A DNA stretch of 64,000 bases from Thermoanaerobaculia bacterium (GCA_963816185.1 CAWFJJ010000024.1:480001-544000); one strand, 5' to 3'. Counted from the first letter of the stretch, positions 10,377 through 56,613 are shown. Program-made: numbers and translations. Notes: a model not told the origin generated them from the letters alone.

Positions 10377-11414
10377 ATGGCGCGCGTCCTCGTCTGCACC
10401 GCGCAGGTGCCGTTCTCGTCCGGCGGCGCCGAGCGCCACGCGGAAGGCCTCGTGCGCGAGCTCGCGGCCTTCGGGCACGAGGCGGAGCTCGTGCGGATTC
10501 CCTTCAAGTGGTATCCGCGCGCGGAGATCCTCACGTCCGCGCTCGCGTGGCGGGTGCTCGACCTGTCGGAGTCGGACGGAAAACGCGTCGATCTCGTGAT
10601 CCCGATGAAGTTCCCGTCGTACCTCGTGAGGCACGAGAACAAGGTCGTCTGGCTGATCCACCAGTTTCGCCAGGCGTACGACCGCTTCGGGACTTCCCAG
10701 AGCGACTTCACCGCCTCGCCCGAAGACACGCGCTGGCGCGAGCTGATCGCCGAGGCGGACCGCACGGGGCTCGGGGAGGCGCGGAAGATCTTCGCGAATG
10801 CGAAAAACACCGCCGACCGTCTCGTGCGGTTCAACGGAATCGAGGCCGAGGCCCTCTACCATCCGCCGCCGCTCGCGGGCCGGTACCGATGCGAGGCCTC
10901 GCGGGGTTTCGCGCTCGTGGCCGGCCGGCTCGACGCCTGGAAGCGCGTCGACCTCGCGATCGGGGCGGCGGCGGCGGGGAAATTCCGCCTCGTGATCGCA
11001 GGCGACGGCGCCGATCGTGCGAGATTGGAAGGTCTTGCCGCCAAGGGTGGCGCCGAAGTGCGCTTCGCGGGGCGGGTGTCCGACGAGGAGCTCCTCGACC
11101 TTTACGCGACTTGTGGCACCGTGGTCTTTCCGCCCGTCGATGAAGACTACGGCTACATCGTGCTCGAGTCTTTCCTGTCGAAGAAGCCCGTCGTGACCTG
11201 CACGGATTCGGGCGGTCCGCTCGAGTTCGTCGTCGACGGAGAGAACGGGCGCGTCGTCGCGCCGGACGGGACGGCGCTCGGAGCCGCTGTCGCGGATCTT
11301 CTCGCGCAGCCGGAGAAGGCCCAGAAATTCGGAGAAAGAGGCTTTGAAAAGGTAAGAGACATCCGCTGGGAAGATGCCGTCCGGGCGCTGCTCGAGGCTG
11401 GCGGAATTCGGTAG
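10377..11414 (+). CDS. Glycosyltransferase family 4
   Basis: GGAE N-terminus, GRLDAWKRVD, EDYGYIVLES. Confidence 0.9.
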   Translation: MARVLVCTAQVPFSSGGAERHAEGLVRELAAFGHEAELVRIPFKWYPRAEILTSALAWRVLDLSESDGKRVDLVIPMKFPSYLVRHENKVVWLIHQFRQAYDRFGTSQSDFTASPEDTRWRELIAEADRTGLGEARKIFANAKNTADRLVRFNGIEAEALYHPPPLAGRYRCEASRGFALVAGRLDAWKRVDLAIGAAAAGKFRLVIAGDGADRARLEGLAAKGGAEVRFAGRVSDEELLDLYATCGTVVFPPVDEDYGYIVLESFLSKKPVVTCTDSGGPLEFVVDGENGRVVAPDGTALGAAVADLLAQPEKAQKFGERGFEKVRDIRWEDAVRALLEAGGIR

Positions 11415-11447
11415 AGAAGAACAAAGAGAGACGAAGAGAAGATTTCT

Positions 11448-12843
11448 ATGAAAGGGGAAGAGCGGGAGCGCGAATCGCCGGGCGGCCGCAACGCGACTCC
11501 GCAGCGCTCGGCGCTCTCCGTCGGGTTCATCGGTCCCCTCCCGCCCACACGCTCCGGCATCGCCGACTACGACGCCGAAATCCTCTCTTCCCTTTCTAAG
11601 AATTCTTCTCTTTCGGTCTCTTCGTATGAACCGGCCGACGCAGCCGCCGCGCTGAAGGCGAAGCACCACGTCCTTCTCTTCGAGATCGGCAACGACCCGA
11701 TGCACGCGCCGTCGGTCGAGGCGCTCTTCGATCCCGGGCGCCGGACTCCCGCCGTGGTCGTTCTGCACGAGTTCGTTCTCCACCACCTTTTCGCAGCGGC
11801 TTATCTGACGCGCTCCCGGCCGGAGGACTACGCGCGCGAGCTCGAGCGGGCTCACGGCGCACGGGGAAGAGCCTTTGCTGCGACGCGGCAAAACGGCTCC
11901 TTCGTCCCCGTCTGGGACCTCGACCCGTGGCTCTACCCGATGTCCGCCGGGGTGATTCGCGCCGCCGAGGCGGTGGTCTCGCACTCGGCGCTCGTGACCG
12001 GTGCGGTGCTCGCCGAGTGCCCGGGCACCCGCGCCCTCACGATCCCTCAGCACGTCGCGCCCGCCCCAAGGACGCCGCTCCTCGAAGCACGCGAAGCGCT
12101 CGGTTTTCCGCAGGGACCGGCCGGCGGGCATCACGCTCGGCATCGTGTCGCCCGCAAAACGCATCGGAAAGATCCTCGAGGCCCTCGCAACGCTCCCGCC
12201 CGACCGCCGGCCGTTCTTCTTCATCGGAGGATCGGTGGCCGAAGACGACGTCCTCCGTTCCATGGTGCGGGAGAGCGGCCTCGATGGGGACGTGAAGTTC
12301 GGCGGCTATCTCTCGGAGGAGGACCTCTGGCGGGCGGCCTCGGCATCGACGTTCGCCGTGAACCTCCGCCACCCCACGATGGGGGAGACGTCTCACGCCG
12401 TGTGCCGTCTCGCGGGCTTCGGCCTGCCGCTCGTCGTCTCCGACACAGGCTGGTTTCGCGAGCTCCCCGACTCGTTCGCCGACAAGATCCCGATCGGGGG
12501 AGACGAGGTCGCGGATCTCGCACGGGTCATGGAGCGCCTCGCGTTCGAGCCCGACCTCGCCCGCGAGCGGGGCCGCGCGGCATCCGAGTGGGGAGTGCCT
12601 CGGCGGCCCGAGCGCATCGCGGAAGCCTACCGGGTAGTGCTCGAAGAGGCGGCCATGGGTTGGTCGCGGCCTCGCGGCATGTCGGGGCGCGTGGCCGAAG
12701 CGCTCGCGCGCCTGGGTGTTGGACAGAGGGGAATGCACGGCGCCACGAGCCGCATGCCCGACGGGATCCTCTTGGCGGAGGTCGCGTCGCGTGCGACGGG
12801 TATCCTGCCGAGGGTGATGGAGAGAGAAAGGGATTTTGCCTAG
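11448..12843 (+). CDS. Glycosyltransferase family 4, one frameshift near 12111
   Basis: PLPPTRSGIADY and VVVLHE in frame 1; KRIGKIL...VNLRHPTMGETS in frame 2; joined by removing one base at ttt ccg [c] agg. Confidence 0.8.
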
Positions 12844-12891
12844 GAAGAGGAGAGAATTTCTTAGAAGGGAACAGGGCCTGCGGCGCGCTCG

Positions 12892-13875
12892 TCACATTGG
12901 AAACCGGCTGCGCAAATCGATCCGCAGCAGGACATCCGGAGCCACCGCGAGGGCGGCCTCGATTTCCTTTCTAAGAAATCCTAAATTGATCCCTCCCTCG
13001 TCATCCCCGAATTGATCGAGCTTTGCTTTCGCGAGCGCCAAGAGGCGCTTCGCCGGCTCGGCATTGCCGCGCTCGATGTGTACGCATGCCGCCGCGAGCT
13101 GGATGAGAGCCTGCAGAAAGACCTTGTCTTCGCCTTTGCTTTCCTTCCAGAGCAGCTCCCACTCTTCGTGGGCCTCGAAGAAGCGCCCGGCCCGGAAATC
13201 CGTGACTCCTTTCCCGAAGTCCGGCGACGCGGCGCCTCCGAACCGCGCGGGGGTCTCGGGGACGACGGAGATCGGCGCGAGGAAACCGCGCGCGAGGAGC
13301 TCCGTCGCCAGGAGGTCGGGGTCCGTCACGACGAAGCCGTCGATGCCGAGCTTCCGCGCGGCGTCGATGAGGTCCGCGCGGTCGTCGGCGTAGAGAGCAT
13401 CCTCTCGCCGCGCTCCGGATAGTGCGAGAGCCGCGTCGTAGTGCGCGGGATCGGGCTTGGCGACGCCGACCTCGAAAGACAGCGCCCTGAGAGGGACGAG
13501 ACGCGGCAGCTCCGGCGCGACGCGGAGGACGCCTTCCCAGTGGAGAGCGTTCGTGTTGGAGACGAGCACGGGCACGACGTCGGGCTCGAGGCGGCTCAGC
13601 GCGGCGAGAGCCGTAGGGACCGCGATGAAGATGTCGCGCCAGGCCGGGATCCAGACGTCGTCGTCGAGCCGGGGTATCCCGGCGGCGCGCTCGGCGGCGC
13701 GAAAGAAAGCGCGCGCCGTGATTCGTCCGAGACCGAATTCGTGCTCGAGCGCGCCGAAGAGGTGCGGGCGAAGGGTCTCGAAAGGCAGGCCGGCGGCCGC
13801 CTCGATCCGCCGGAGCGTCAGGTCGTGATCGAACCGGATGAGAACGTTGCCGAGGTCGACGAGGAGGGCTCGCAG
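12892..13875 (-). CDS. HAD-family hydrolase fused to a C-terminal DUF309 domain
   Basis: Frame open back to 13887 giving LLVDLGNVL; also SNTN, KPDP, ADD, then FFEAHEEWE...QALIQLAAACVH. Start uncertain (CTG). Confidence 0.75.
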   Translation of the reverse strand: MRALLVDLGNVLIRFDHDLTLRRIEAAAGLPFETLRPHLFGALEHEFGLGRITARAFFRAAERAAGIPRLDDDVWIPAWRDIFIAVPTALAALSRLEPDVVPVLVSNTNALHWEGVLRVAPELPRLVPLRALSFEVGVAKPDPAHYDAALALSGARREDALYADDRADLIDAARKLGIDGFVVTDPDLLATELLARGFLAPISVVPETPARFGGAASPDFGKGVTDFRAGRFFEAHEEWELLWKESKGEDKVFLQALIQLAAACVHIERGNAEPAKRLLALAKAKLDQFGDDEGGINLGFLRKEIEAALAVAPDVLLRIDLRSRFPM

Positions 13876-13887
13876 ACGGGCGCCCTT

Positions 13888-14707
13888 TCAGGGAAGGGCG
13901 GGCTGCCCGGTCAGGAGATAGGGATCCCCCGTGCGCAGATCGGTGACGGTCGCGTAACAGAGAGCGCGAGCGCCGTTCGAGAGATTGACGAAGACGGTGA
14001 GACGCCACGGGCCGCCCTCGGGGAGGAGAAGCCGAGGCGAAGTCGACATGGAAGATGTCATTGAGCTGGTGGAGCGAGAATGGGGGGACGGTCACGAGAA
14101 CGGTCTTGTATGGATTGCCATCCCAGTCCACGAGCTGGACGCCGGCCTCGAGGGGAACTCCGGTCGGGTTGATGACAACGGCGTTCGTCCGGTGGCTCGG
14201 GTCATTCGGGATTCCCGTGAGGTACAGGTCGCCGAGAATCGAGTTGTCGAATCCGACGGAATTGCGCAGCGGCTGGCCGGGGGAGAACTGACCGTACGTT
14301 CCGGGCACGGCGCCAGCGACGTTATATGTGTTGCTCGTGACCTGGACCGGCGTCGTCGATGAGCTCTTGATCTGAAGGAGGCCGTAGCTCGACCCGAACC
14401 CGAACGTCGACTGAACGATGTCCGGGAGCGTCACCGAGGCACGCGGTCCGAGATCGCCCGGGATGCGGTACGCGAGGCTCGCCGTCCCGTCGCGGTCGGC
14501 CTCCGTGTAGTACAGCGCGACGACTGCGGCGGAGAGAGGATCCGGATTGAAGATCGTGACGTCGGTTCGAAAGACGCCCGAGGCCCCGTTGATGTGCACG
14601 GCCGGAAGGAACGAGTCCGTCGATGAGATCGTGTCCGGCAGGGCAAGCCTTCCCGGGAGTACCAGGGCCGCGAGAAGGGCCGCCGCGGAAAGAGATGAAT
14701 TCTTCAT
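13888..14707 (-). CDS. Secreted hypothetical protein, frameshift near 14020
   Basis: Signal peptide, NGASGVFRTDVTIFNP, GTYGQF; continues to ...TGDPYLLTGQPALP* after removing one C from a C-run. Confidence 0.65.
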
Positions 14708-14747
14708 CGGTTTCTCCGTCGCCAGATTCTCACAGGGAAGGAGCTCG

Positions 14748-14785
14748 AAAACGAAAACGCCCCGGCGTCGCCGGGGCGTCTCGTT
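14748..14785 (-). terminator. Rho-independent terminator of the lipoprotein gene
   Basis: ACGCCCCGGCG/CGCCGGGGCGT stem followed by a T-run on the minus strand. Confidence 0.75.
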
Positions 14786-14803
14786 GTTCCAGGAGCTCGC
14801 CGC

Positions 14804-15037
14804 TTACTTGGTTGCGGGCGCGGAGCTCGTCGTGGTCGTGGACGTCGTTGTGGTCGTGGAGGGCATGGTCGTCGTGCCGGTGCCGGGGGCTGTGGACGTC
14901 GTGGTGGTCTTGGAGGTCTCTTCGACGACCTTGGGCGCCTCCACCTTGACTTCGGGCTTCTTTTCCTCAGGCTTGTTGCAGGCCACGAGGGACGCTGCGA
15001 CGGCGACGAGGGCGAGGGCGGATGTGAACTTCTTCAT
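14804..15037 (-). CDS. Small lipoprotein with a Thr-rich tail
   Basis: MKK + hydrophobic stretch + LVAC lipobox; AAGGAG RBS. Confidence 0.8.
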   Translation of the reverse strand: MKKFTSALALVAVAASLVACNKPEEKKPEVKVEAPKVVEETSKTTTTSTAPGTGTTTMPSTTTTTSTTTTSSAPATK

Positions 15038-15175
15038 TTCGGGGTACTCCTTGCTGTGTGATCGATCAGGTCGTTAGTGGGCCTGTCTGAGAGGGAAAAT
15101 CCGGGACTCGAGGGACGTCTTCGGGAAACACAAACACCGTTATAGACGGTTCGTACCGCCTCGAGCTTCGCCAAG

Positions 15176-15203
15176 AGGATACGGGAATTCGGCCTTCTGT
15201 CAA
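15176..15203 (-). promoter_or_regulatory. Putative sigma70 promoter for the lipoprotein gene
   Basis: TTGACA-N16-TATCCT on the minus strand. Confidence 0.5.
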
Positions 15204-15269
15204 GCCCATGAATGAGTTGGCCTCGAACTGTAGGTCCGGCTGGCCCTGATAGACTCCGCAGCCCGGGCG

Positions 15270-16571
15270 ATGTTCGAATCCCTCTCAAATCGACTCCAGC
15301 GCGTCTTCAAGGAGCTTCGCGGCGAGGGTCACCTCACCGAGTTCCACGTGGATGAAGCCCTGAAGGAGATCCGGACGGCGCTCCTCGAAGCAGACGTCAA
15401 CCTTCAGGTTGTCAAGGACTTCACGGCCCGCGTCAGGGAGAAGGCCGTCGGCCAGGAGGTCCTGACTTCGTTTTCGCCGACGCAGCAGGTGATCAAGATC
15501 GTCCGGGACGAGCTCACGCGGGTCCTCGGGGGCGAGCAGGCGCCGCTCGCCCTGAAGAAACGCCCCTCGGTGATCCTGCTCGTGGGCCTCCAAGGCTCGG
15601 GGAAGACGACGACCGCCGCAAAACTCGCCCTCCACCTGAAGACGTCGTTTCGAAAACACGTGCTCCTCGTCCCTGCCGACGTGCACCGTCCGGCGGCGAC
15701 CGAGCAGCTCCGGACGCTCGCGAAGGACAACGCCCTGATGGCGTTCGACCCGAAGGGCGAGCCGGACGCCGTCGTTCGCGCGAAGACGGCGGTGAAGGAC
15801 GCGAAGCTCCTCGGATACGACGTGGCCATCCTGGACACCGCGGGACGGCTGCACATCGACGAGGTCCTGATGGACGAGGTGGCGCGAATCCGCGACGCTT
15901 CCGAGCCCGACGAGATCCTCTTCGTGGCCGACGCGATGACGGGCCAGGACGCCGTCCGCTCGGCGGAAGCGTTCGCCGCGAAGCTCCCTCTGACCGGCGT
16001 GATCCTCACGAAGACGGACGGCGACGCGCGGGGCGGCGCCGCGCTCTCGATCGCGACCGTCGTGGGCAAGCCGCTGAAGTTCGTGGGCACGGGCGAGAAG
16101 GTGACCGAGCTGGAGCTCTTCCATCCGGACCGCGCGGCCTCGCGCCTTCTGGGTCTCGGCGACGTCCTCACGCTCATCGAGAAGGTCTCGGCGGAGACCG
16201 ACGAGGCCGCCGCCCTCCGCGCCGCCGAGAAGCTGCGCAAGAATACCTTCACGCTCACCGACCTCCGCGAGCAGATGGCGCAGCTCAAGAAGATGGGTCC
16301 TCTGGGCGGGCTCCTCGGACACCTCCCGAAGGTCGGGCCGCTCAAGGGGCTCGCGAACCTCGAGATTCCGGAGGACGCGACGAAGAGTCTGGAGGCCATG
16401 ATCGACTCGATGACCCCCGCGGAGCGCGAGGACCCGAAGCTCCTCGACGGCAGCCGCAAGAAGCGCATCGCGAAGGGCTCCGGCACGTCGGTGCCGGAAG
16501 TGAACCAGCTGCTGAAGCAGTATCTGTCGATGAAGAAAATGATGAAGGGCGCCGCGCGCATGCGCGGCTGA
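15270..16571 (+). CDS. ffh: Signal recognition particle protein
   Basis: ALLEADV, GLQGSGKTTT, DTAGR, DGDARGGAALS, M domain SRKKRIAKGSG. Confidence 0.97.
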   Translation: MFESLSNRLQRVFKELRGEGHLTEFHVDEALKEIRTALLEADVNLQVVKDFTARVREKAVGQEVLTSFSPTQQVIKIVRDELTRVLGGEQAPLALKKRPSVILLVGLQGSGKTTTAAKLALHLKTSFRKHVLLVPADVHRPAATEQLRTLAKDNALMAFDPKGEPDAVVRAKTAVKDAKLLGYDVAILDTAGRLHIDEVLMDEVARIRDASEPDEILFVADAMTGQDAVRSAEAFAAKLPLTGVILTKTDGDARGGAALSIATVVGKPLKFVGTGEKVTELELFHPDRAASRLLGLGDVLTLIEKVSAETDEAAALRAAEKLRKNTFTLTDLREQMAQLKKMGPLGGLLGHLPKVGPLKGLANLEIPEDATKSLEAMIDSMTPAEREDPKLLDGSRKKRIAKGSGTSVPEVNQLLKQYLSMKKMMKGAARMRG

Positions 16572-16602
16572 CCTTCGTCCGTCGAAAACGGAAGGAAACG
16601 TC

Positions 16603-16836
16603 ATGCTCAAGATCCGCCTGCGCCGCGTCGGCGGCACGAACGCCCCGGCGTACCGCATCGTCGTCTCGGACACCCGCCGCACGCCCACGGCCAAGATCGT
16701 CGAGGAGCTCGGCCACTACGACCCGACCAAGAACCCGCCGCGTCTCGAGTTCGACCGCGACAAGGCGAAGGCCTGGATCGCGAAGGGTGCGAGCGCGTCG
16801 GAAACCGTGCGGAAGCTCATCGCGAAGCCGGTCTGA
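16603..16836 (+). CDS. rpsP: 30S ribosomal protein S16
   Basis: MLKIRLRR..YRIVV..GHYDP..GA..SETV; synteny. Confidence 0.96.
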   Translation: MLKIRLRRVGGTNAPAYRIVVSDTRRTPTAKIVEELGHYDPTKNPPRLEFDRDKAKAWIAKGASASETVRKLIAKPV

Positions 16837-16870
16837 GGCGCGCCCGACGGGCGCGCCCGGGAGCGATCGC

Positions 16871-17389
16871 ATGACCGCGCCGGAAGATCGCGTCGTCATT
16901 GGTCGAATCGTGAAGCCGCACGGCCTCAAGGGAGAGGTCGTCGTCGAGGTGTTGACGGATTTTCCGGAGAGATTCTCAGAAGGGTTGAGAGTCCGCCTCT
17001 CCGGCGGTGCTCACGAGGCGCGAGAGGTGCGCATCGCGGCGGTGCGCTCGCATCAAGGCCGCGTTCTCCTCACCTTCGAAGGAATTTCGGACGTTTCGAT
17101 GGCCGAGACGCTTCGGAACGCGGAGCTGAGCGTGAGCGCGCGGGACGTCGCTCCCCGACCCGAGGGCTACGTCTACCACTGGGAGATCGAGGGTGCGCTC
17201 GCCGTCGACGCGGCGGGTACCGTGCTCGGCCGCGTCACGGAGCTTGCCGACGCCGGGGGGCGCTCTCTTCTCGTCCTCGAGACGGCACGCGGCGCTCGTG
17301 AGGTGCCGTTTTCCAGCCCGATCGTGGTCTCGGTCGACGTCGCCGGGAAACGCATCGTCCTCGATCCGCCGCCGGGACTTCTGGACTAG
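16871..17389 (+). CDS. rimM: Ribosome maturation factor RimM
   Basis: GRIVKPHGLKGEV, TDFPERF, PPPGLLD. Confidence 0.93.
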   Translation: MTAPEDRVVIGRIVKPHGLKGEVVVEVLTDFPERFSEGLRVRLSGGAHEAREVRIAAVRSHQGRVLLTFEGISDVSMAETLRNAELSVSARDVAPRPEGYVYHWEIEGALAVDAAGTVLGRVTELADAGGRSLLVLETARGAREVPFSSPIVVSVDVAGKRIVLDPPPGLLD

Positions 17390-17398
17390 GCTCGGCGC

Positions 17399-18145
17399 GT
17401 GCGGTTCGACATCGTCACTCTCTTCCCCGGTTACTTCGCGTCTCCGCTCGGGGAGTCTCTCGTGGGGCGCGCTTTGGAAACGGGGATCCTGGACGTCCAT
17501 CTCGTCGATCTTCGCGATTTCTCGGACGACCCCCATCGCAAGGTGGACGACGAGCCTTACGGAGGCGGGCCGGGGATGGTCCTCACCGCCCCTCCTGTCT
17601 TCGCGGCGGTCGAGGCTCTCAGGGCCGAGGAGAGCGCGCCGCCGCACGTCGTCCTCCTGTCGCCCCAGGGCCGGCGCTTCGACACGAGGTCCGCCCGGGA
17701 GCTCGCCGCGCGGCCGCGCGTCGCCCTCGTCTGCGGCCGCTACGAAGGGATCGACGAGCGGACGCGCGTCGCCGGCCTTTTCGACGGGGAGATTTCTCTC
17801 GGAGACTTCGTCCTTTCCGGAGGTGAAGCCGCCGCGCTCACGATCCTCGAAGCCGTATCCCGCTATCTCCCCGGTGTGGTCCAGGACGCCGCGAGCGTAT
17901 CGGCGGACAGCTTCGAAGACGGGCTGCTCGACTATCCGCATTACAGCCGCCCGCGGTCGTTCCGAGGGCTCGACGTGCCGGAGGTGCTGCTCTCCGGCCA
18001 CCACGAGGAGATCCGGAGGTGGCGCCGCGTAGAGCAGCTTCGCGCTACCTTCGAAAGGCGCCCGGACCTCCTTTGCGAGGCTCGGCTCGACGACGAGGAA
18101 AGAGCACTCCTGGAGAGACTTGCGAGAGAGCGGCGCTCGCCTTAG
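17399..18145 (+). CDS. trmD: tRNA (guanine37-N1)-methyltransferase
   Basis: DDEPYGGGPGM, CGRYEGIDER, SLGDFVLSGGE. Confidence 0.97.
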   Translation: MRFDIVTLFPGYFASPLGESLVGRALETGILDVHLVDLRDFSDDPHRKVDDEPYGGGPGMVLTAPPVFAAVEALRAEESAPPHVVLLSPQGRRFDTRSARELAARPRVALVCGRYEGIDERTRVAGLFDGEISLGDFVLSGGEAAALTILEAVSRYLPGVVQDAASVSADSFEDGLLDYPHYSRPRSFRGLDVPEVLLSGHHEEIRRWRRVEQLRATFERRPDLLCEARLDDEERALLERLARERRSP

Positions 18146-18238
18146 AATCGCGTCTCACGGGTGAACGGTTTTCTTGGGGTGCCGGTCGAAGTGTCCCCGA
18201 GTGTTTCGTCCCGTCACCACGATTTTGGAGGTTCCGCG

Positions 18239-18589
18239 ATGACGGACAAACTACTGTTGGCCGAAAAGGCCGCCCTTCGCCCGGATGTTCCGCCTTTCTC
18301 TCCCGGCGACACCGTCAAGGTCCACGTGAAAGTCAAGGAGGGCGAGAAAGAGCGCGTCCAGGTGTTCCAGGGCCTCGTGATCGCCCGCAAGGGCGGCGGC
18401 GCGCGCGAGACGTTCACCGTGCGCAAGATCTCGCAGGGTGTCGGTGTGGAGCGCACCTTCCCGGTGCACTCGCCTGTGCTCGAGAAAATCGAGGTCGAGC
18501 GCCATGGCCAGGTGCGCCGTGCGAAGCTGTACTACCTTCGGGATCGCCGCGGCAAAGCCGCCCGCATCGCGGAGAAGCGCGACAACTGA
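18239..18589 (+). CDS. rplS: 50S ribosomal protein L19
   Basis: [38 protein letters not shown]; GGAGG RBS. Confidence 0.97.
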
Positions 18590-18641
18590 CCCCGGAATCG
18601 CCGTGCCGGTGCGAAGCTCCGGCCGAAGGAAGCGAGGCACG

Positions 18642-19328
18642 ATGGGATCTGGCGGGAGTCGGAACGCATGCGACCTCGCGAGGGAGCGGGAGCGAGTGAA
18701 AGGGCTCTTCGTCATCGAGGAGGAAGCGCGCGCCCGAGGCCATGTCCTGATCGCGGGCGTGGACGAAGTCGGCCGCGGGTGTCTCGCCGGGCCTGTGTAC
18801 GCAGGCGCCGTCGTGTTCGACCGCCGCCTGACGCTGCCCGGCCTCGACGATTCCAAGGCGCTTTTTCCGGAGGTCCGTGAGGCCCTCGCGCCCCGGATCC
18901 GCGCGGCCGCGGTGGGCGCTGCGGTCGGTGCCGCGACGGCCGCCGAGATCGACGCGATCGGCATCGTCGCCGCCACTCTTCTCGCGATGCGCCGCGCCCT
19001 CGAGCTCCTGCGCGGCGCCGCTCTCGTCCCCTCGCTCGTCCTCGTCGACGCGGTGCGGGTCCCGGGGCTCGAGGCCGAGCAGCAGGCCTATATCCGCGGC
19101 GACGCCCGCGTGGCGGTGATCGCAGCCGCCTCGATCGTCGCGAAAGTGGAGCGCGACGCCCGCATGGACGAGCTTGCGAAGCGTTTTCCGTTCTATGGTT
19201 TCGAATCACACCGGGGATACGCGACACCCGAGCACATCTCCGCGCTCCGCCGTCACGGCCCCTCGCCGGAGCACCGGTTGACGTTCGACCGCGTCGTGGT
19301 CCGCCGCGGCGCGTCGAGAGCGGCGTAA
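18642..19328 (+). CDS. rnhB: Ribonuclease HII
   Basis: GVDEVGRGCLAGPV, DDSK, AAASIVAKV, GYAT..H; start approximate. Confidence 0.94.
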   Translation: MGSGGSRNACDLARERERVKGLFVIEEEARARGHVLIAGVDEVGRGCLAGPVYAGAVVFDRRLTLPGLDDSKALFPEVREALAPRIRAAAVGAAVGAATAAEIDAIGIVAATLLAMRRALELLRGAALVPSLVLVDAVRVPGLEAEQQAYIRGDARVAVIAAASIVAKVERDARMDELAKRFPFYGFESHRGYATPEHISALRRHGPSPEHRLTFDRVVVRRGASRAA

Positions 19329-19335
19329 GGCGATC

Positions 19336-22300
19336 ATGGCGAGCAAACGCGACGCTCTCGTGGCTTCGGCCGAGAAATCCCTCGCGAAGGGGAAGGTCGA
19401 CTCCGCCCTGAAGGACTACCAGAAGGTCCTCGAGGAGATTCCCGGCGACGTCAACATCCTGAACAAGGTCGGTGATCTCCTCACGCGCCTCAACCGCAAC
19501 GAGGAGGCCATCCCGTATTTCACGAAGATCGCCGAGCACTTCGCCCGCGACGGCTTCTTCCTGCGCGGCATCGCGATCTACAAGAAGATCAACCGGCTGG
19601 ATCCGTCCCGCCTCGACGTCTACGAGCGGCTCGCCGAGCTCTACGCGAAGCAGGGCCTCACGACGGAGGCGAAGAGCCAGTATCAGGTGCTCGCGGACTA
19701 TCACGCGAAGAACGACAACCCCGTCGCCGCGATGGGGATCTACCAGAAGATGGCGTTGACGGACCCGTCGAACATCCAGCTGCACGTCAAGCTGGCGGAT
19801 CTTTACTCGCAGGCGCGCCGCAAGATCGACGCCCTCAAGGAATACGCGATCGTCGCGGGGCTCCTACGCGAGCGCGGCGCTCTCGACGAGTCGATCCAGG
19901 TTTACGAGAAGGCGTTGCAGATGTCGCCGGACAACGCCGAGATCCTGCGCTCGTTCGTGCCGATTCTCCTGGAGTCGGGTCGTGCGCGCGACGCGCGCGT
20001 CGCCCTGCGCCGGGCGTTGGAGACGACGCCGCGGTCCGTGCCGCTGTTCCTGCTCTCGGCGGAAGCCGCGCTCGCCGAGAACGACGTGCGCGAGGCCCAG
20101 GAATGGGTGTCGAAGGCCCAGTCGATCGAGTCCTCGAGCGCCGAGGTGCTCGCGCTCGCCCTGAAGGTCCAGCAGGCCGGCGGCGCGATGACGTTGTCGT
20201 TCGAGTCCGCGGCGGTCCTCGCCGATCAGGCGATGCGGCGGGGCGAGGCGAAGAAGGCTCTTTCGATCCTCTCTCCGCTCGCGGAGGCGAATCCCGGTCG
20301 GGAGGACGTACTCTTGCGAGTCATTCAGGTCGCAGAAGCGGCCGGTGACACGAAGACGCTGATCCGCTGGCGGTCGGCGCTCGTGGATGCCCACAAGTCC
20401 ATGGGCCGCATCGGAGACGCCGCGACCGGCCTGCGCGCGCTGCTGCAGCTCGTGCCGGACTCCGCCGAGTACCGCACCCGGCTCGCCCAGCTCGAGCCTT
20501 CGGCGGCGCGCCCTGACGCGGACCGGAGCGGCCCAAGCGCTCAGCCGACGATCCCGGTCGTTCCTCCGCTCGAGACGAGCGGGAAACGCCCGCGCTCTTC
20601 CATGGAGATAAGCGCGCAGCGCCGCGTTCCCGTCGAGCCCGCCGTGCCGATTCCGCCGCCGCCCTCCTTCGCTCCGGCCTCTCCTGCCGCCGAAGCCGCC
20701 GAAGGCGAGTTCATCCTCGAGCTCGAGGACGATCAGCTCGTCCATGAACCCGGCTCGACCGGGCCGGTTCCGAATGCGGTCCGCCGCCTCTCGAAGCCCG
20801 GGACGGCCTCGTTTTCCCCGCCTTCCGCGCCGCCGCCCCTCGCGCCGCCCCCTGTGACGCTTCCTCCCGTAGAACCTCTCGAGCCTGCGCGGGAGGTCGA
20901 GGCTTCGATGTTCACACCCTCCCTGGACGAGGGAGTGCCGGGCTGGTCCGAGGCGCCGCGTCCGGCGCCGATCGAGACGGATTTCGAGGTCGAGACCGCG
21001 CTCCCGGCCGACGAGTTCCAGGTGCCGGTCGAGCCCGCGGAGCTCCCCTCGGTTCCCTCGGAAGCCGAGCCGATCGAGCTCTCGGGCGAGCCCCTTCCAG
21101 CCGTCGAGCAGCCGGCACCCGCCTCGGAGCCCGAGGCGCCGGCGGAAGAGGCTCTGGCTCCGGATGCGATCGAATCCGCGCTCGCCGAGGCGGACGTCTT
21201 CCGGAAGTACGGCCTCTACGACAAGGCCGTCGACCATCTCAGGGGAATCCTGAAGCGCGCGCCGGATACTCTTCCGCTTCGCGAGAAGCTCTTCGAGCTC
21301 GCTCTCGAGGGTGGACGAAAGAACGTCGCCATCGCCGAGGCCGAGCGGCTCAAGAGTCTCTACCGGACCGAGGGGCGCGACGATCGCGTCTCCGCGATCG
21401 ATGCGCTGCTCGTCGAGCGCACGAGCGCCGAGATGGGGGAGGCGAGCGAGTCGCATCCAGGCCTTCCGGCGGCCCTCAAGGACACTCTTCCGCGCGCGCG
21501 ACCTTCAAAGGAGCCCGTGTCCCCGGCCGCCCCTCCGGTCCCGGCAGCTCCGGTCGAGCCCGTCGAGCCTGCCGCGGCGGCGACCGAGCCTCCGGCCGAC
21601 GAGCTCCTCGAGATCGATTTTTGCCTCGAGCAGGGGATGGTCGTCGACGCTTCGGAGAGGCTTCAGACTCTGGAGCGCCTTTTCCCGGGGCACCCACAGC
21701 TCGCACGAAGGCGGTTGCGTCTCGAGGGTGGCGCAGCCGAGGACGCGCGGCCGGCCCTGCGAGACATCCTCTCGGAGGATTTCGAATCGGTTCTCGACGC
21801 CGAGCTTGGCCGGGCTCTGACGGACGAGATGGCGCGTGGCGCCGAGAGCGTTCCTCCTGCGACGCCCGTGCCGGGCCCCCCGGCTCCCCCCCTGGACGAG
21901 TCGTCGCTCTTCTCCGACGAGCAGGAGTTCTTCAACTTCGCGGGCGAGCTTCAGACGGAGATGAAGCAGGAGGCCGGCGCGCCCGCCGTCCCCGAGGTGA
22001 GCGGGGGCGACGTGCCGCTCGAGGAGATCTTCCGCGAGTTCAAGAAGGGCGTCGAGCAGCAGCTCTCGCCGGAGGACTTCGAGACGCACTACAACCTCGG
22101 CATCGCCTACAAGGAGATGTCCCTCACGGACGAAGCCATCAGCGAGTTTCAGAGAGCCGCGAAGAGCCCGCAGTACGCGGTGGAATGCTGCTCGATGCTG
22201 GGACTGTGCTTCCTGGAGAAGGGCCTCCCTCAGCTCGCGATCAAGTGGTACCGCAAGGGCCTCGACAACCCCGGAATCCGCGAGGAAGACCGCCTCGGCC

Positions 22301-22437: not shown

Positions 22438-22465
22438 GGCGCGGCCGGCTCTCCTGAGATCCGCC

Positions 22466-26958: not shown

Positions 26959-26965
26959 GACCGCC

Positions 26966-27706: not shown

Positions 27707-27736
27707 GTTCGAGAGCGCATCTGACAAACTCCGCGC

Positions 27737-28605
27737 GTGGTCGCCGACGTCCTCGCGCTCGTTCTCCTTCAGCTCGCCGTCGGCCTCGCGATCTGCAATC
27801 TCCTGACGCCGTCGAAGGATCTGTCGGGCGGATTCTTCGCCCTGCACGGACTGATCGGTTGCTTTGCGCTTTGCCTGTCGTGGCTCGTTTCGGGACGCGC
27901 TGGTTTTCTGCTTAGAAGGGAAGAGGGGGAAGCCGCGCGCGGCGCGGCCGCAGCTCTCGGGGCTCAGCCGTGGTTCGCTGCGGCGCTTTTCGCCGTTGCC
28001 CTCGCGACGCTGGTTGCCCATACACTTCTCGCTCGGGCAGGCTCCGGCGCCCCTCTTGCCCTTTCTAAGAATTTCTCTTCGTCTCGACCTGCTGTGGTGT
28101 CGCTCTCCTTTTGTCGCGCGTGCGCGTGGAACCATTCGCCTCCCTCCCCGGCATCGGCCCCGCCTGGCTCGCCGCCGGGCTTCTCCTCGGCGCCCTGCTC
28201 TTCGGCGCCGTCGTGTGGGCGATGAATCTCGGGCACTGGTATCTCGTCTCGACGTCGTTGCCGTTCGGCCTCCTCGTGCGCGCGACGGAGGCCTTCGCGT
28301 GCCTCGTGCTGCTGCGGGCGGTCTTCGCCGTCGTGGCGCTCGGCCTCGTGGCGCGGGCCTCGGCGGGCGACGGGGGAGAGGCGCTCGCAGGGCTCGTCGA
28401 TCCGATGCGCGACGGCTTCTTCTTCTGGTCGCGCGTGACGTGGGGCCTCCTCGCGCCCCTCCTCCTCGCGCCGTTCGTCGTGAAGACCGCGCGCATGAAA
28501 TCGAATCAGGCCGCCACGGGGCTCCTCTACGTGGGTCTCGTGTTCGTGCTCGTCGGCGAGGTCCTCGCCGCCTACCTCACGCGGCGTTCGGGACTTCCCG
28601 TCTGA
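27737..28605 (+). CDS. Multi-TM hypothetical protein (GHWYL motif), frameshift near 28068
   Basis: Hydrophobic ORF from 27737 continues in another frame (EFLFVSTCC...MNLGHWYLV...SNQAATGLLY). Confidence 0.65.
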
Positions 28606-29765: not shown

Positions 29766-29852
29766 GAGCTGGGCAATGGTAAGAGACAGAGAGGGAGAGA
29801 AGAAGATCTTCTTAGAAAGATCAAGAGGGGACCGAAGAGAAGATTTCGGATT

Positions 29853-30026
29853 GTTCCTATATGCGGCGGCCGCAGTTGCGGCCGCCGGCAATAGGAACTC
29901 CCGGATGTCCGGTGTCAAGGGTCTTCGACCGCTACGCGGCGCGCGTAGCGCGCCCTTGACTCCGGACATCCGGGGAGCACGTTTACCGCCGTCGGCGGCT
30001 GCATCAGCAGCCGCCGCATATAAGAA
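29853..30026. repeat. Composite hairpin (REPIN-like) repeat, copy 1
   Basis: Hairpin B (29853-29898), hairpin A (29898-29977), inverted hairpin B (29992-30026); cores shared with 45711-45838. Confidence 0.8.
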
Positions 30027-30063
30027 GAAATCTCCTCCTCCTCGTTCCACGTATCCTCGATTC

Positions 30064-30537
30064 GTGCGCGTCTCTGTCTACTGCTCCGACTGCCTCGCCC
30101 GCATCGAGGTTCCGCCGCCCCAGGAGACGCCCAGCGGCTCTGTCTCTTGCCCTTCTAAGCATTCCCCGATTTCCTTTTCCCATTCCGAAGCCGTCAAGGC
30201 CGGATCGCGGGTGGATGTCTGCTCTCGCTGTTCCTCCAGTGCGCTCTTCGGCCAGAAGGACTTCGACCAGCGCCTCGGCTGCGCGATCCTCGCCGCTGGC
30301 GCAGCGGTCGCCCTGGGCGTGTCGTGGCGTTTCGGCGGGATCTGGTTCGTGCCGGTGCTCCTCGCCGTCGCGGCAGCAGATTTCGTTCTCGCGCGCCGGG
30401 TCGCGCCCGTCGTCATCTGCTACCGATGCGACACGGAGTACCGGGGCGCCGCCGATGCTTCCGCCGCGCGGCCCTACGACCCGCACATCGCGGAGCGGTT
30501 CGCCGAGGTGAAGACCGTGAGGCGCATGAACCCCTGA
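30064..30537 (+). CDS. Hypothetical membrane protein with CxxC motifs
   Basis: CSDC, CSRC, QKDF, two TMs, CYRC, YDPH. Confidence 0.7.
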   Translation: MRVSVYCSDCLARIEVPPPQETPSGSVSCPSKHSPISFSHSEAVKAGSRVDVCSRCSSSALFGQKDFDQRLGCAILAAGAAVALGVSWRFGGIWFVPVLLAVAAADFVLARRVAPVVICYRCDTEYRGAADASAARPYDPHIAERFAEVKTVRRMNP

Positions 30538-43805: not shown

Positions 43806-45637
43806 GTGCGGCGATCCGGCGCCGCGACGGACGGGCGCTCGAAGACCTCGACGTCCGGGTCGCGTTCGAGCCCGAGGACGTCGTAAGCGGCCGCGGGAGA
43901 GATGGAGGGAGGGTTCCCGACGAGGGCGTCGGAGTCCCACGCGAGGCCGCCGTAACCGGCGACGGACCCTTGCATCTTCTGGAAGACGTCGCGGGGGGTC
44001 CACTGCGTGTCGAACGCGCCCCATCGCGCGCCGAGGTGCAGCAGGATCTCGAGGTCCGTGCGCACGACGGGCGGCGACACGATCGCCATGTCCACGCGCT
44101 GCACGCGTCCCTTCACGTTCACGAACGTGCCTTCCTTGCCGGAAAGAGGCGCGGTTGGAAGCACGATGTCGGCGGCGTCCGTCAGCGCGTTCCGCTTGCG
44201 GGCATGGACGACGAGGACGCTCGCCTTGCGCAACTCGGCGACGAACGCGGGATCGGAGCATTTCTCGCTGAAGTCGGCATCGGCAATGTAGAGGACGGCG
44301 GGAGAAGAGAAAGAGAAAGAGGAAGAGGAAGATTTCTTAGAAAGAGAAAGATCCGAAGAGGAAGAGGAGGATGAAGAAGAAGATTTCTTAGAAGGGAAGA
44401 GGGAGTAAGCCGATCCGAGGGCGGAGCCATCGCCCGCGCTTGCGCGCTTCAAGCCGGCCGCCTCGCAGCCCCGGGAGTTTGGTGCCGCGTCCGTTCCGTA
44501 CAGCCACCCGTCCACCTTGTTCTTGATCCGCCTTCTTGGCCCTTCGTCGACGAGAAACTCGGGGGTGCCCACCTTCAAAGAATCTTCAAACAGCGTCTTC
44601 AAAAGCCAGTTCTCCTCGGTCGTGAGCCGCGCCGAGCCGAGAGCTAGTACTCTTCCTTTCGAAGCAATATTGTCTTTCTTTTCTTCCTCTTCGAGGTGCT
44701 CGCCGCCTTCCCCCCGCGCCCGGTCGATCGCGACCTTCACGGCGTCGAGCGCCTCGCCCCAGTTCGTCTGCTTGCGCGCGTCGCTGCCGGGGACGCGGAT
44801 CTCGGGCTTCTTGAAATCCTGCCGGTTGAGGTCCTCGGAGCGGAAGCGGCCGTAATCGCACATCCAGAAGTCGTTCACGGCGGGTTGGACGCGCGGAAGG
44901 TACCGGTAGACGACGCGGTCGCGGTGCTCGATGGACATGTTGCAGCCGATCTCGCAGCCGTCGCACACCGAGCGCGTCTTGTCGAGCCACCACACGCGCT
45001 TGCGGAACCGGAACTCCTTCGTCGTGAGGGCGCCGACGGGGCAGACGTCGGCCGCGCAGGCCGAGAGGTCGTTGTCGAGCAGATGGCCCTCGTGCGTCCA
45101 GACGAACGTGTGGCCGGCCCTCTCGACGAACGTGAGCTCGCCCGTCTGGGTGATCTCCGCGCAGAAGCGGATGCAGCGCGTGCACTGGATGCAGCGCGTC
45201 ATGTCCGCGATGACGTGGGGGCCGATCGGCGTGCGGTCGTAGCCTGGGAACTGCCGCCGAGGTTCGGACGTGCGTGAGACCGGCAGGCCCGCGCCCATGG
45301 CGTTGTCCTGCAGCTTGCACTCGCCGGCCTGGTCGCAGATCGGGCAGTCCAGCGGATGGTTGATGAGGAGGAACTCCATCGTCGCGTTGCGCGCGGCGAG
45401 GGCCTTCTCCGTCGAGGCCTTGATGACCATGCCGTCGCGAATGGGCACCGTGCACGAGGCCTGGATCTTCGGCACGCCCTCGACCTCGACCATGCACATG
45501 CGGCACTGGCCGACGATCGACAGGCGCGGGTGATAGCAGAAGTGCGGCACGTCGACGCCCGCCGCCCGGCACGCCTCGAGCGCGTTCGCGTCGTTCGGGA
45601 CTTCGACGACCTTCCCGTCGACGGTTACCTTTGCCAT
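43802..45637 (-). CDS. nuoG: NADH-quinone oxidoreductase subunit G (short form, with low-complexity inserts)
   Basis: CYH..CRMC..C, HPLDCPICDQAGEC, RCIQCTRC..CPVGAL, CDGCEIGC, EGTFVN. Confidence 0.92.
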   Translation of the reverse strand: MAKVTVDGKVVEVPNDANALEACRAAGVDVPHFCYHPRLSIVGQCRMCMVEVEGVPKIQASCTVPIRDGMVIKASTEKALAARNATMEFLLINHPLDCPICDQAGECKLQDNAMGAGLPVSRTSEPRRQFPGYDRTPIGPHVIADMTRCIQCTRCIRFCAEITQTGELTFVERAGHTFVWTHEGHLLDNDLSACAADVCPVGALTTKEFRFRKRVWWLDKTRSVCDGCEIGCNMSIEHRDRVVYRYLPRVQPAVNDFWMCDYGRFRSEDLNRQDFKKPEIRVPGSDARKQTNWGEALDAVKVAIDRARGEGGEHLEEEEKKDNIASKGRVLALGSARLTTEENWLLKTLFEDSLKVGTPEFLVDEGPRRRIKNKVDGWLYGTDAAPNSRGCEAAGLKRASAGDGSALGSAYSLFPSKKSSSSSSSSSSDLSLSKKSSSSSFSFSSPAVLYIADADFSEKCSDPAFVAELRKASVLVVHARKRNALTDAADIVLPTAPLSGKEGTFVNVKGRVQRVDMAIVSPPVVRTDLEILLHLGARWGAFDTQWTPRDVFQKMQGSVAGYGGLAWDSDALVGNPPSISPAAAYDVLGLERDPDVEVFERPSVAAPDRRT

Positions 45638-45710
45638 GCCACGTCCGAAGAGAACGAAGAGAAGAAGATCTTCTTAGAAAGATAAGAGAGAGAAGAGAAG
45701 AGGGGGATAT

Positions 45711-45838: not shown

Positions 45839-45859
45839 AAAAATCCCCTCCACTCTCTT

Positions 45860-54567: not shown

Positions 54568-54628
54568 GAGTAGACCTCCCCGCACGGACCCAGCAAGCGA
54601 TGTGCCGGATCGCGCGGAAGTCTTTTCA

Positions 54629-55549
54629 ATGAGCGGCATAATCACCGGGAAGGTGAGCGCGAGAGGGGCCCCGATCCTGACCGTCGACGTGGAGGACTGG
54701 TTCCACCTCTGCGGGTCTCGCGCGTACTCCGATCCGGACTCCTGGGCGGGACGCGAGAAGCGGGTCCACCTCGGTGTCGAGCGCATCCTCGCGCTTCTCG
54801 ACGGATCCGGCTCGACCGCGACGTTTTTCGTCCTCGGCTGGGTCGCGCGACAGAGCCCCGCGCTGGTCAAGAGCATCGCGGACGCAGGCCACGAGATCGC
54901 CTGCCACGGCGACCTCCACCGCCGCGTCTTCGAGATGACTCTCGACGAGTTCCGCGAAGACCTCCGGAGGAGCCGCGACTCGCTGCGGGAGCTCGTCGGG
55001 AAGCCGGTGACGTCCTTCCGCGCGCCGGAGTGGTCGATGAAGAGCGCGAAAAACGCAGCCTTCGCAGTTCTCGCCGAGGAGGGTTTCACGCTGGACTCCT
55101 CGCTCACGACCGCGCCGCCCGTGGGCGAGCCTTCGAATCCGGATCGGCCCACGATGCTCGAGACCTCGTCGGGCCCGATCCTGGAGGTCCCTCCGCTCAT
55201 GGGCACTTTCTTCGGCTTTCGGGCGATGTGGGGCGGCGGCGTGTGCGCGCGAATGACGCGCGAGAGTCGCGTTTCGGCCGCGATCGAGCGGGCGCTCGCA
55301 AACGGCATCCCGCCCGTGCTCTACGGGCATCCCTGGGAGTTCGACGATGCCCATCCCCCGATGCCCGGCCTCTCTCCCGTCGAGCGTCTCGTCCACTTCG
55401 CGGGGCGTAGGCGGACGGAAGGGCGCTGGCGCCGCCTCCTCGCGCGGTATCGGTTCGAGCCGATCTCGTCGATTCGAGCGGAGCTCGAGAGGAAGAAAGA
55501 GAAAGAAGAGATTTCTGCGAATGGGAAGAGGGGAGGCGTCGCGGCGTGA
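54629..55549 (+). CDS. Polysaccharide deacetylase (DUF3473/PEP-CTERM-locus type)
   Basis: TVDVEDWFH, ATFFVLG, GHEIACHG..H, FRAP, HPWEFD. Confidence 0.88.
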   Translation: MSGIITGKVSARGAPILTVDVEDWFHLCGSRAYSDPDSWAGREKRVHLGVERILALLDGSGSTATFFVLGWVARQSPALVKSIADAGHEIACHGDLHRRVFEMTLDEFREDLRRSRDSLRELVGKPVTSFRAPEWSMKSAKNAAFAVLAEEGFTLDSSLTTAPPVGEPSNPDRPTMLETSSGPILEVPPLMGTFFGFRAMWGGGVCARMTRESRVSAAIERALANGIPPVLYGHPWEFDDAHPPMPGLSPVERLVHFAGRRRTEGRWRRLLARYRFEPISSIRAELERKKEKEEISANGKRGGVAA

Positions 55550-56613
55550 GCGCGCCTCTCGTGGTCTCCTCTGTATCGTCCTCCACCTTCGTCGCTCTTT
55601 TTCCCGGTCAGCTCTCCGAGAAGGCGGGAATGGGGGAGGCGCTCGCGCGACGCTTCGAGTTCGCCTCTTCCCTATTCGAAGAAATTTCCAGAAGATCAGG
55701 AGTTCGTCTCGCCGACGTCTTCTTTGGCGAGGGTGCTAAGAACCTCCACGACGACCTGCCGGCGCAAGTCGGCGTCTTTTCCGTCTCGCTCGCGGCGCTC
55801 GAGGCGCTGCGCCGCGTTCACCGCCTCGAGCCGGCGGCCGCGGCGGGATACAGCCTCGGCACGTATGCCGCGTTCGTCGCGGCGGGCGCGCTCGAGATAT
55901 GGGCCGCCCTCGACGTTCTCCTCGAAGCCGAGCGGCTCATGTCCGAGGCGTCCAGACGCGGCGAGCTGGACGGTACGATGGCGTACGTCATCGGCCTCCC
56001 GCGCCCGGCCGTCGAGGAAGCGCTCGCGGCGCTCACTCCCGATCGCGCGCGCCTCGCGATCGCGACGGAGAACGCGGCCGCGCAGTTCGTCCTGACGGGC
56101 GAGAGGGCGCTCGTCGCCGCGGCGGTCGAGGCGCTTCGGCCGAAGGCGCTGAAGGCGGATCTGCTTCCGATCAATGTCCCGATGCACTCGAGCAGCCTCT
56201 CGCGTGTGTGTGATCGTCTGCAAAATTTCTTAGAAGGGGGGGTGAGGGTAAAGCGGCCGGAAGCGGCTCTCTTCGCTCCGATGCTGGCACGGAAAATTGA
56301 GACCGCTGAGGAAGCTTCCTATACCCTTTCTAAGCAAATTTGCAGACCGTCGCTCTTCGCGCCGACGCTGCGGGCAATGGGCGAGGCCGGGTTGGCGCGC
56401 TTCGCCGAGGTCGGCCCGGGCGACGTCCTCACGAAGCTGGTTCGCTGGACGCTTCGCGACGCGAAGGTCGCGAATCCCGCGCTGGAGGATCCCGCTTCGA
56501 TCGAAGCGTTCGCGAAGTCCCTCGCGCCTCCTCCCCTCTTCCCCTTCAAAGAAAGATCCACCGTGGCCTTTGCCGAAGCAAAGCAGGACTCGCACGGGTC
56601 CGAAGCAAAATGA
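55546..56613 (+). CDS. FabD-like ACP acyltransferase (divergent)
   Basis: LFPGQ, GYSLG, PMHS, EVGPG. Confidence 0.82.
   Translation: MSAPLVVSSVSSSTFVALFPGQLSEKAGMGEALARRFEFASSLFEEISRRSGVRLADVFFGEGAKNLHDDLPAQVGVFSVSLAALEALRRVHRLEPAAAAGYSLGTYAAFVAAGALEIWAALDVLLEAERLMSEASRRGELDGTMAYVIGLPRPAVEEALAALTPDRARLAIATENAAAQFVLTGERALVAAAVEALRPKALKADLLPINVPMHSSSLSRVCDRLQNFLEGGVRVKRPEAALFAPMLARKIETAEEASYTLSKQICRPSLFAPTLRAMGEAGLARFAEVGPGDVLTKLVRWTLRDAKVANPALEDPASIEAFAKSLAPPPLFPFKERSTVAFAEAKQDSHGSEAK

Follow-up and report, generated by a model that had tools for sequence, protein, structure and literature searches.

An oriented DNA motif in inward-facing sets, interspersed through the genomes of a genus of uncultured soil Acidobacteriota

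Introduction

Interspersed repeats of bacterial chromosomes are usually explained either by a mobilising transposase, as for REP doublets forming hairpins (REPINs) and miniature transposable elements with inverted repeats (MITEs), or by a bias in DNA uptake, as for the uptake signal sequences (USS) of Pasteurellaceae and the DNA uptake sequences (DUS) of Neisseria. Here, we describe a motif that fits neither explanation. It is an asymmetric DNA arm that occurs in inward-facing sets along a 64,000-nucleotide (nt) stretch from a Thermoanaerobaculia bacterium (GCA_963816185.1, CAWFJJ010000024.1:480001-544000; hereafter the window) and throughout the genome from which this stretch was taken.

The closest described systems are the repetitive extragenic palindromic sequences (REPs), REPINs and bacterial interspersed mosaic elements (BIMEs) of Pseudomonas and Enterobacteria. 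As described in PMC3116915, these are short, lineage-specific, high-copy repeats that lie mostly as inverted doublets about 70-110 bp apart (71 and 110 bp for REPIN doublets), with spacers that are less conserved than the repeat itself and with some copies occurring as singlets, all of which is also true of the motif reported here. REPs in turn serve as targets of insertion sequences (PMC1525189). Uptake sequences are similar in other respects. In the genomes treated in PMC2346458, 47-70% of them lie in coding regions and inverted pairs between genes occur; like the present motif, they are lineage-specific, found in coding and non-coding DNA on both strands, kept at orthologous sites and able to evolve in place.

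Two further kinds of element offer points of comparison. Rickettsia palindromic elements enter as a whole, are 100-150 bp long and have a conserved inner sequence; their palindromic repeat is tolerated in frame within protein-coding genes and kept among species. The ends of transposons of the Mu and Tn7 type carry several directly repeated sites per end; the two ends are mutually inverted, so that outer and inner sides are defined.

The best explanation of the observations reported below is that the motif is a genus-specific interspersed DNA element, the functional unit of which is an inward-facing set of arms, (+)n ... (-)m.

Results

Arm anatomy and the inward-facing rule

The motif was derived from the sequence at eight loci of the window for which a first-pass annotation had reported a plus-strand copy followed by a minus-strand copy; the core was recovered in place and in this order at all eight. 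Each copy, here called an arm, is about 30-45 nt long and built of three parts: a GA-rich tract of about 20 nt (GAAGAG-type), the core TTCTTAGAA with its principal variant TTCTTCGAA, and a 3' segment GG(T/G)GAAGAGGG (also given as GGTGAAGAGGG). The core is near-palindromic, TTCTT(A/C)GAA, and the direction of an arm is set by the purine flanks on either side of it; the outer flanks are low-complexity GA tracts. Unlike a REP, a single arm is not itself a hairpin of 20-40 nt.

The 15-mer TTCTTAGAAAGGGAA, with up to three mismatches, matches 17 times in the window, compared with a mean of 0.37 and a maximum of 2 in shuffled sequences. The copies at 6223/6438 and 44574 are weak and fall under the cut-off of our position weight matrix (PWM), and an additional pair at 16973/17075 was absent from the earlier list. 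Local alignments between the arms at the eight loci contain 14-35 identical positions over 17-43 nt. The complementarity of flanks that the annotation had described, exemplified by 11425-11462 and the reverse complement of 11583-11623 (about 46 aligned columns in our hands), exists within every pair but is not specific to the pair, since arms of different pairs are equally alike.

The source genome measures 5.09 Mb in 30 contigs, of which contig 24 holds the window, with 67% G+C; as a bin it is 94.9% complete with 3.4% contamination. Scanning it with the PWM and a core filter returned 871 arms (429 + and 442 -), a density of about 1 per 5.8 kb, whereas the same scan gave 122 matches in the reversed genome and 11 in a Markov-simulated genome of 4.47 Mb, with no convergent pair in either. 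Adjacent arms no more than 400 bp apart are convergent in 289 cases, divergent in 20 and tandem in 50 + 50 (binomial 3e-62); random placement yields 14.6 +/- 3.7 convergent pairs with a maximum of 27 in 300 simulations, so the convergent excess first noticed in the window extends to the genome as a whole, where it is much stronger. A search for exact cores with N50-170 between them gave the same picture, with 129 convergent and 4 divergent matches. Shuffles, reversed genome, Markov genome and random placement together rule out a chance origin.

Arms cluster in the patterns '+-' (191), '+--' (30), '++-' (29), '++--' (5) and '+++-' (3), with a single '-+', and 169 arms are solitary. The sets, which we call units, therefore follow the layout (+)n ... 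(-)m; about two thirds of all arms belong to inward-facing pairs, while outward-facing pairs occur at chance level. Several directly repeated sites per side, with the sides inverted, are also what the ends of Mu and Tn7-type transposons show. Core starts lie between 39 and 380 bp apart, most often 70-99 bp, and the geometry is therefore not fixed, contrary to what the annotation had proposed. Units are unevenly spread over the genome (mean 4.76 per 50 kb, variance 11.2), with contigs C29 and C25 poor and C24 and C28 rich in them, a pattern that could stem from acquired regions or from heterogeneity of the bin.

Arms inside fabD, nuoG and other genes

The gene fabD (55546-56613) contains the pair 56227/56328. 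Its product is collinear with the FabD structure PDB 2cuy; over query residues 220-319, which span the pair, the alignment is interrupted by one gap of one residue. The product is likewise collinear with FabD of four other genera in the family. At one fabD arm, the codons of the outgroups are GC-rich (TGG TTC GAC GAG GTC), those of the sister genus are intermediate (TTC GAA GAG), and the arm is complete in the genus itself, as TCA TTC GAA GAA ATT TCC AGA AGG; the steps include the synonymous changes CGG>AGA and GAG>GAA. Third-codon positions are identical at 0.68 and 0.78 in two fabD arms (8 sites per arm) and at 0.59 in flanking fabD. Several of the codons that intragenic arms use are scarce in the genome: TTA makes up 0.22% of Leu codons, AGA 2.6% of Arg, TCT 5.2% of Ser, GGT 6.4% of Gly and GAA 19% of Glu.

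When nuoG is compared with five outgroup genomes, three separate arm histories emerge. The + arm at 44334 arose in place, where outgroups encode RLLDGS and the sister genus DLLLSKK; the + arm at 44385 is a 21-residue insertion; and the - arm at 44658 is a 15-residue insertion beside a pre-existing Ser-Lys. The sister genus has a single + arm in nuoG, and the partner arm was therefore gained later. Together with their purine flanks, the arms (44314-44413 and 44638-44700) translate to low-complexity runs (SLFPSKKSSSSSSSSSSDLSLSKKSSSSSFSFSS; EEEEKKDNIASKG) that are missing from the five outgroup NuoG proteins. Because the histories of nuoG and fabD show substitution or short insertion, the arms were made separately around native sequence. 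This differs from REPs and REPINs, given that the arms here are built in place by substitution, and from Rickettsia palindromic elements, since each arm here has its own origin and the DNA that lies between them belongs to the gene. Units also lie inside rimM and inside kinase, dnaE-type and metG-type open reading frames (ORFs).

The position of units within genes bears on the idea, raised by the annotation, that a site-specific recombinase flips the bracketed segment. Intragenic invertons exist in other phyla, and inverted repeats 100-350 bp apart would suit such a switch. We nevertheless hold this to be extremely improbable: units sit in essential-type genes such as fabD, nuoG and the dnaE-type and metG-type genes, their interiors align collinearly with the homologues of all genomes that we examined, and the repeats are without the identical crossover cores of an inverton, as the central core base (A or C) is the same in only 51% of pairs. 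Logan contigs of related strains, 90-99% alike, from four public runs of soil samples (two DNA and two RNA libraries) show no strand-changing or excision joint at five units over 11001-30500, which is weak evidence since the contigs cover the region thinly and run X1 gives no cover over 27901-29200.

Conservation and lineage range

Five arms in and around fabD were followed in 11 genomes of the genus with FabD identities of 52-88%, and 44 of the 55 arm-by-genome checks were positive at the orthologous site; one of the misses coincides with an N run. At 27909/28063 and 29809/30153, the arms persist in aligned relatives while the interior diverges. Relatives also differ by the gain or loss of arms, either through indels of about 30 nt or through tandem copying. 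In genome G005, three tandem copies, repeating about every 28 nt, stand for the - arm at 28063, and arms seem to be duplicated by slippage in their GA/CT flanks.

All 19 of the other genus genomes searched have the exact paired pattern (7-69 matches each), as do two of three genomes of the sister genus. It had no match in 58 genomes from 15 other genera of the order, which include the unpublished records G013 and G018, and the reversed-pattern control likewise gave none. In a scan of one genome per species (185,579 species), the 80 matches listed, out of at least 108 stretches, all come from Acidobacteriota or Thermoanaerobaculia metagenome-assembled genomes. A literature search, the scope of which was papers without their supplementary files, returned no paper on such a motif in this lineage, and a search for the core 9-mer returned eukaryotic and primer matches only.

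Arms that arise by point substitution in place, with intermediates in the sister genus, are what molecular drive without a cellular function would produce, whereby biased uptake or biased short-patch gene conversion turns proto-sites into the consensus. The occurrence at coding and non-coding sites, in rare codons, on both strands equally and within one lineage is in line with this, and recalls uptake sequences as portrayed in PMC2346458, some of which form intergenic inverted pairs. ComEC and DprA are present, yet they are also encoded in 10-11 of 14 control genomes and are hence non-discriminating. What drive leaves unexplained is the arrangement. Two thirds of the arms are strictly inward-facing across 40-350 bp of arbitrary DNA, genes included, mostly at 70-100 bp, outward-facing pairs remain at chance level, and a MITE described below prefers unit interiors. 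Moreover, the arm has about 30 nt and low-complexity purine flanks, and the uptake sequences known to us are shorter. We thus regard drive alone as an improbable explanation.

How the arms are read

Facing arms show no sign of having been matched to each other. In 289 pairs, the two arms of a pair agree at each variable position no more often than arms of different pairs do, and a gapped alignment of the flanks detects no within-pair excess (p = 0.13 and 0.17). In 149 units with a known direction of transcription, sense-strand mismatches are G.U-compatible in 793 cases and A.C in 839. Lone arms score as well as paired ones (PWM score 27.2 and 28.0, p = 0.07), whereas the REPIN singlets described in PMC3116915 are more decayed than doublets, and lone arms have no GC-skew bias. 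The absence of covariation, the lack of a G.U excess and the equal scores argue against selection for base pairing and favour recognition of each arm independently, with an orientation rule that is set by how the bound factors meet.

This leads us to propose, with a probability of roughly 0.35, that the arms are independently recognised sites in duplex DNA for a lineage-specific protein that acts on inward-facing pairs. Each arm would be bound singly by this sequence-specific protein, which could be architectural or derived from a transposase; protomers on facing arms would then cooperate across about 60-90 bp, and up to about 350 bp, of arbitrary DNA, and would form a small nucleoprotein unit in which the enclosed DNA behaves in a special way during DNA transactions. 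The proposal goes beyond the observations in supposing recognition by a protein instead of base pairing, an interaction of facing arms and their maintenance by selection on the host. Further points in its favour are the constraint on intragenic arms at the level of nucleotides, the retention of arms at orthologous sites, the confinement of the pattern to one lineage and the preference of a MITE, described below, for unit interiors. The two-site unit for a dimeric or multimeric protein that the annotation had put forward fits the inward-facing rule, the occurrence of several arms per side and the lack of covariation between arms.

Several points speak against this proposal. No candidate for the arm-reading protein was found. 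A rigid protein-bridged loop should phase the arms on the DNA helix, and the periodicity of about 10.5 bp that the annotation had suggested as a test gave no signal (p ~0.6); the spacing signals that do exist, at periods of 3 and 9, come from coding units and from the 93-nt spacing shared by 15 paralogous kinase genes. What resembles purifying selection on the arms could also be produced by a bias in gene conversion or in DNA uptake. The gene calls were made with a home-made codon-usage caller, and genic and intergenic fractions are rough. Among 137 units that are 65-100 bp long, 114 have their two cores paired in the predicted minimum-free-energy fold (mean z -2.4 relative to shuffles). Lastly, in one subclade, six one-sided changes at fabD have given the right flank 10 nt of extra complementarity to the left flank, which suggests that the strands sometimes pair.

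Because of the predicted pairing, the unphased spacing and the complementarity in the fabD subclade, a hairpin role is a live rival, albeit one that we consider unlikely. In such an element, the arms would pair as RNA or as single-stranded DNA during replication, forming a large loop on a stem some 25-30 bp long, and would act as a REP/BIME-like mRNA stabiliser, processing site or weak bidirectional terminator. A broad range of spacings suits a loop, and by symmetry the purine arm would stand 5' of the pyrimidine arm whichever strand is transcribed. Beyond the missing covariation, including a central core base that differs in about half of the pairs, and the missing G.U excess, a hairpin is at odds with interiors that are no more structured than random DNA (z -0.19 and -0.20), with lone arms that are as well kept as paired ones and with both strands serving equally. 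Furthermore, stems would hinder the translation of fabD, nuoG and the dnaE-type and metG-type genes that contain them. Rfam has no match to arms or units in the window; a structured RNA family would show such a curated-family match or covariation that keeps pairs intact, and the motif has neither.

A separate observation concerns the ribosomal RNA. The - arm variant CCCTTTCTAAGAA has the 10-mer CCTTTCTAAG in common with the 16S 3' end and the start of the following spacer (C1:445500-445580), so the + arm is Shine-Dalgarno-like. The 16S 3' end is standard, and the sharing may be due to chance.

Mobile DNA in and around the units

A second repeat, which we term element B, is a separate palindromic MITE of about 130 bp that occurs at 48 loci in the genome, two of them in the window (29835-30045, a head-to-head dimer, and 45712-45851). 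It carries a GCGGCGGCTGC...GCAGCCGCCG hairpin at one end and a long TCCCGAATGACCGATGTCAAGGG...CCCTTGACATCGGTCATTCGGGA hairpin at the other. In the relatives G003 and G011, element B is missing at the orthologous site, which holds a + arm instead. At 28 of the 48 loci, element B has an arm no more than 120 bp away. Of the 35 arms concerned, 33 aim at the element, where chance predicts 2% per flank; element B is therefore located preferentially in the interior of units. This preference resembles that of the insertion sequences reported in PMC1525189 to target REPs.

Could the units themselves be mobile? As a non-autonomous transposon, a unit would be a MITE or REPIN with the arms as terminal inverted repeats and a transposase encoded elsewhere. 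Transposons typically have terminal repeats that face inward and several binding sites at each end, the REPIN doublet spacings given in PMC3116915 are within the range seen here, element B has an arm-like outer half at one end, and some arms correspond to clean indels of about 30-60 nt. Still, we think this very unlikely, as the units do not show the whole-unit insertion, conserved interior and size class of a MITE: compared with PDB 2cuy and the outgroups, fabD is not lengthened by its units, the arms in nuoG entered separately around native sequence, and interiors are unique, with only 31 of 278 falling into clusters. Described REPINs share their spacers (PMC3116915), whereas the spacers here are unrelated, so there is no population of near-identical copies. 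In contrast to the ends of Mu or Tn7-type elements, the arms bracket no cargo but a native gene or a unique spacer, have no cognate transposase that we could find and occupy sites that are stable genus-wide.

Searches for a source of mobility gave the following results. Y1_Tnp (PF01797) has no match in the window's own genome, and genes of this IS200/RAYT type occur in 4 of 29 genomes of the genus (G055, G088, G076 and G023). A REP-associated tyrosine transposase (RAYT), with which REPINs as described so far travel, is thus not co-distributed with the motif and was rejected as its source. Of 11 inward-facing pairs that are 400-4000 bp apart, five were examined; they enclose housekeeping genes and no transposase, which disfavours an autonomous element. 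An IS630-type insertion sequence with DDE_3 and helix-turn-helix domains lies on the - strand at 35051-36170, in a low-GC stretch, and was dismissed as the source of the motif since its ends (CTAGT...GTAAC...) are unrelated to the motif.

Interiors and gene context

The interiors of units are unique DNA with 72% G+C. They have no conserved central motif, the sole enriched k-mers being derived from kinase paralogues. The clustered interiors fall into five groups, two of which correspond to paralogous Ser/Thr kinase genes and one to element B, while the remaining two are small.

By the coding frames of their flanks, 89 units have both flanks on the same strand and in the same phase, 60 on the same strand in another phase, 11 are convergent and 11 divergent, and in 118 at least one flank falls below the coding threshold. 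The ratio of 89 to 60 leads to a rough estimate that about 35% of classifiable units are intragenic; a mixture estimate of the coding status of interiors was uninformative, as its 'intergenic' baseline still holds missed genes. The annotation's statement that the intervening DNA is usually coding is thus correct for the window, but genome-wide it applies to an estimated third of the units. Even this proportion sets the motif apart from the REPINs described in PMC3116915, which are extragenic.

Divergent spacers contain units about as often as they contain random positions (11 compared with 7.3), which adds to the lack of an RNA signature. Neither lone nor paired arms prefer a gene strand, and their distances to the stop of the upstream gene and to the start of the downstream gene are variable. 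A promoter, a ribosome-binding site or a terminator signal was rejected because of the missing strand preference, the variable distances and the unstructured interior.

In fifteen paralogous Ser/Thr kinase genes outside the window (C24 602-621 kb and other contigs), a unit with a spacing of 93 nt occupies identical codons, EEFFEGEE ... SFEEI. A second unit follows about 650 nt further on in four of these genes, and a variable Ser-rich loop follows the - arm.

Features of the window

The arms of the window and the element B copy that lies between two of them are listed in Table 1. The glycosyltransferase ORF at 11448-12974 shifts its coding potential from frame 3 to frame 1 near 12050, and the Glycos_transf_1 domain was found only in an overlapping ORF at 12001-12843; a frameshift, a pseudogene or an error in the assembly could account for this. 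A tRNA gene at 58897-58982 is the sole Rfam match in the window at the gathering threshold.

Table 1. Arms of the motif and associated element B copy in the window (MFS, major facilitator superfamily; score, PWM score).
Feature	Position	Strand	Core start	Context and remarks
Weak + arm	6203..6251	+	6223	Core TTCTATGAA; linker of NUDIX-Rieske ORF (- strand); under PWM cut-off
Weak - arm	6418..6466	-	6438	Core TTCGAAGAA; encodes LLFLRIGG of NUDIX domain; under PWM cut-off
+ arm	11424..11472	+	11444	Upstream of/at start of glycosyltransferase ORF; score 28.4
arm	11574..11622	-	11594	Perfect 15-mer; N-terminal coding region (ILSSLSKNSS); score 40.4
+ arm	12838..12886	+	12858	Score 34.1
arm	12949..12997	-	12969	Score 32.9
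+ arm	16953..17001	+	16973	Within rimM; score 16.2
arm	17055..17103	-	17075	Within rimM; score 24.1
+ arm	27889..27937	+	27909	TAG of arm is stop codon of ORF 27124-27915; kept in 4/4 aligned relatives
arm	28043..28091	-	28063	Kept in 4/4 aligned relatives; tandem triplicate in G005
+ arm	29789..29837	+	29809	Divergent spacer between MFS gene and zinc-ribbon gene; clean ~32-nt gap in G003
Element B, palindromic MITE (head-to-head dimer)	29835..30045			Relatives have a second + arm at this place
arm	30133..30181	-	30153	About 30 codons into zinc-ribbon ORF (CPSKHS)
+ arm	44314..44362	+	44334	Within nuoG (- strand reading DLSLSKK + Ser run); in-place origin from outgroup RLLDGS
Second + arm	44365..44413	+	44385	Within nuoG; 21-aa insertion vs five outgroup genomes
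Weak - copy	44554..44602	-	44574	Core TTCAAAGAA; within nuoG
arm	44638..44686	-	44658	Within nuoG; 15-aa insertion (GGEHLEEEEKKDNIA) beside pre-existing SK
+ arm	45651..45699	+	45671	nuoF-nuoG spacer; aimed at element B copy (45712-45851)
+ arm	55493..55541	+	55513	About 25 nt upstream of fabD start; in 8/11 genus genomes
arm	55655..55703	-	55675	Within fabD (SLFEEIS); substitutions in place; in 10/11 genus genomes
+ arm	56207..56255	+	56227	Within fabD (NFLEGG); no insertion vs PDB 2cuy or outgroups; in 10/11 genus genomes
arm	56308..56356	-	56328	Within fabD (TLSKQICR); in 10/11 genus genomes
Second - arm	56525..56573	-	56545	Near fabD 3' end; in 6/11 genus genomes
Lone + arm	62878..62926	+	62898	Upstream of ORF starting 62933

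Discussion

The pairing rule of the motif is as strict as that of transposon ends, yet the DNA between the arms is native. For a specialist, the most surprising feature is that arms are written in place into essential genes. Strict pairing, together with arms formed in place in fabD and nuoG at very rare codons, implies a strong, sequence-specific and orientation-aware force acting on the DNA.

If this force is exerted by a protein that reads the oriented 30-nt site and acts on inward-facing sites only, such a 'convergent-site rule' would represent a new architectural system of the bacterial chromosome, needed strongly enough for about 290 units to be written into the genome, some of them in essential genes by way of synonymous and non-synonymous changes to very rare codons, and used by a palindromic MITE as preferred landing pads. 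We put this forward tentatively, as a possible but doubtful interpretation.

For the lineage itself, the motif is a clean marker of an uncultured genus of soil Acidobacteriota, and it accounts for the odd low-complexity inserts, Ser-rich or Glu/Lys-rich, in proteins of these organisms. It would also provide a natural example of a regulatory or architectural code that is overlaid on coding sequence. The factor behind the motif, once found, would add a new DNA-protein or DNA-structure system to those already described.

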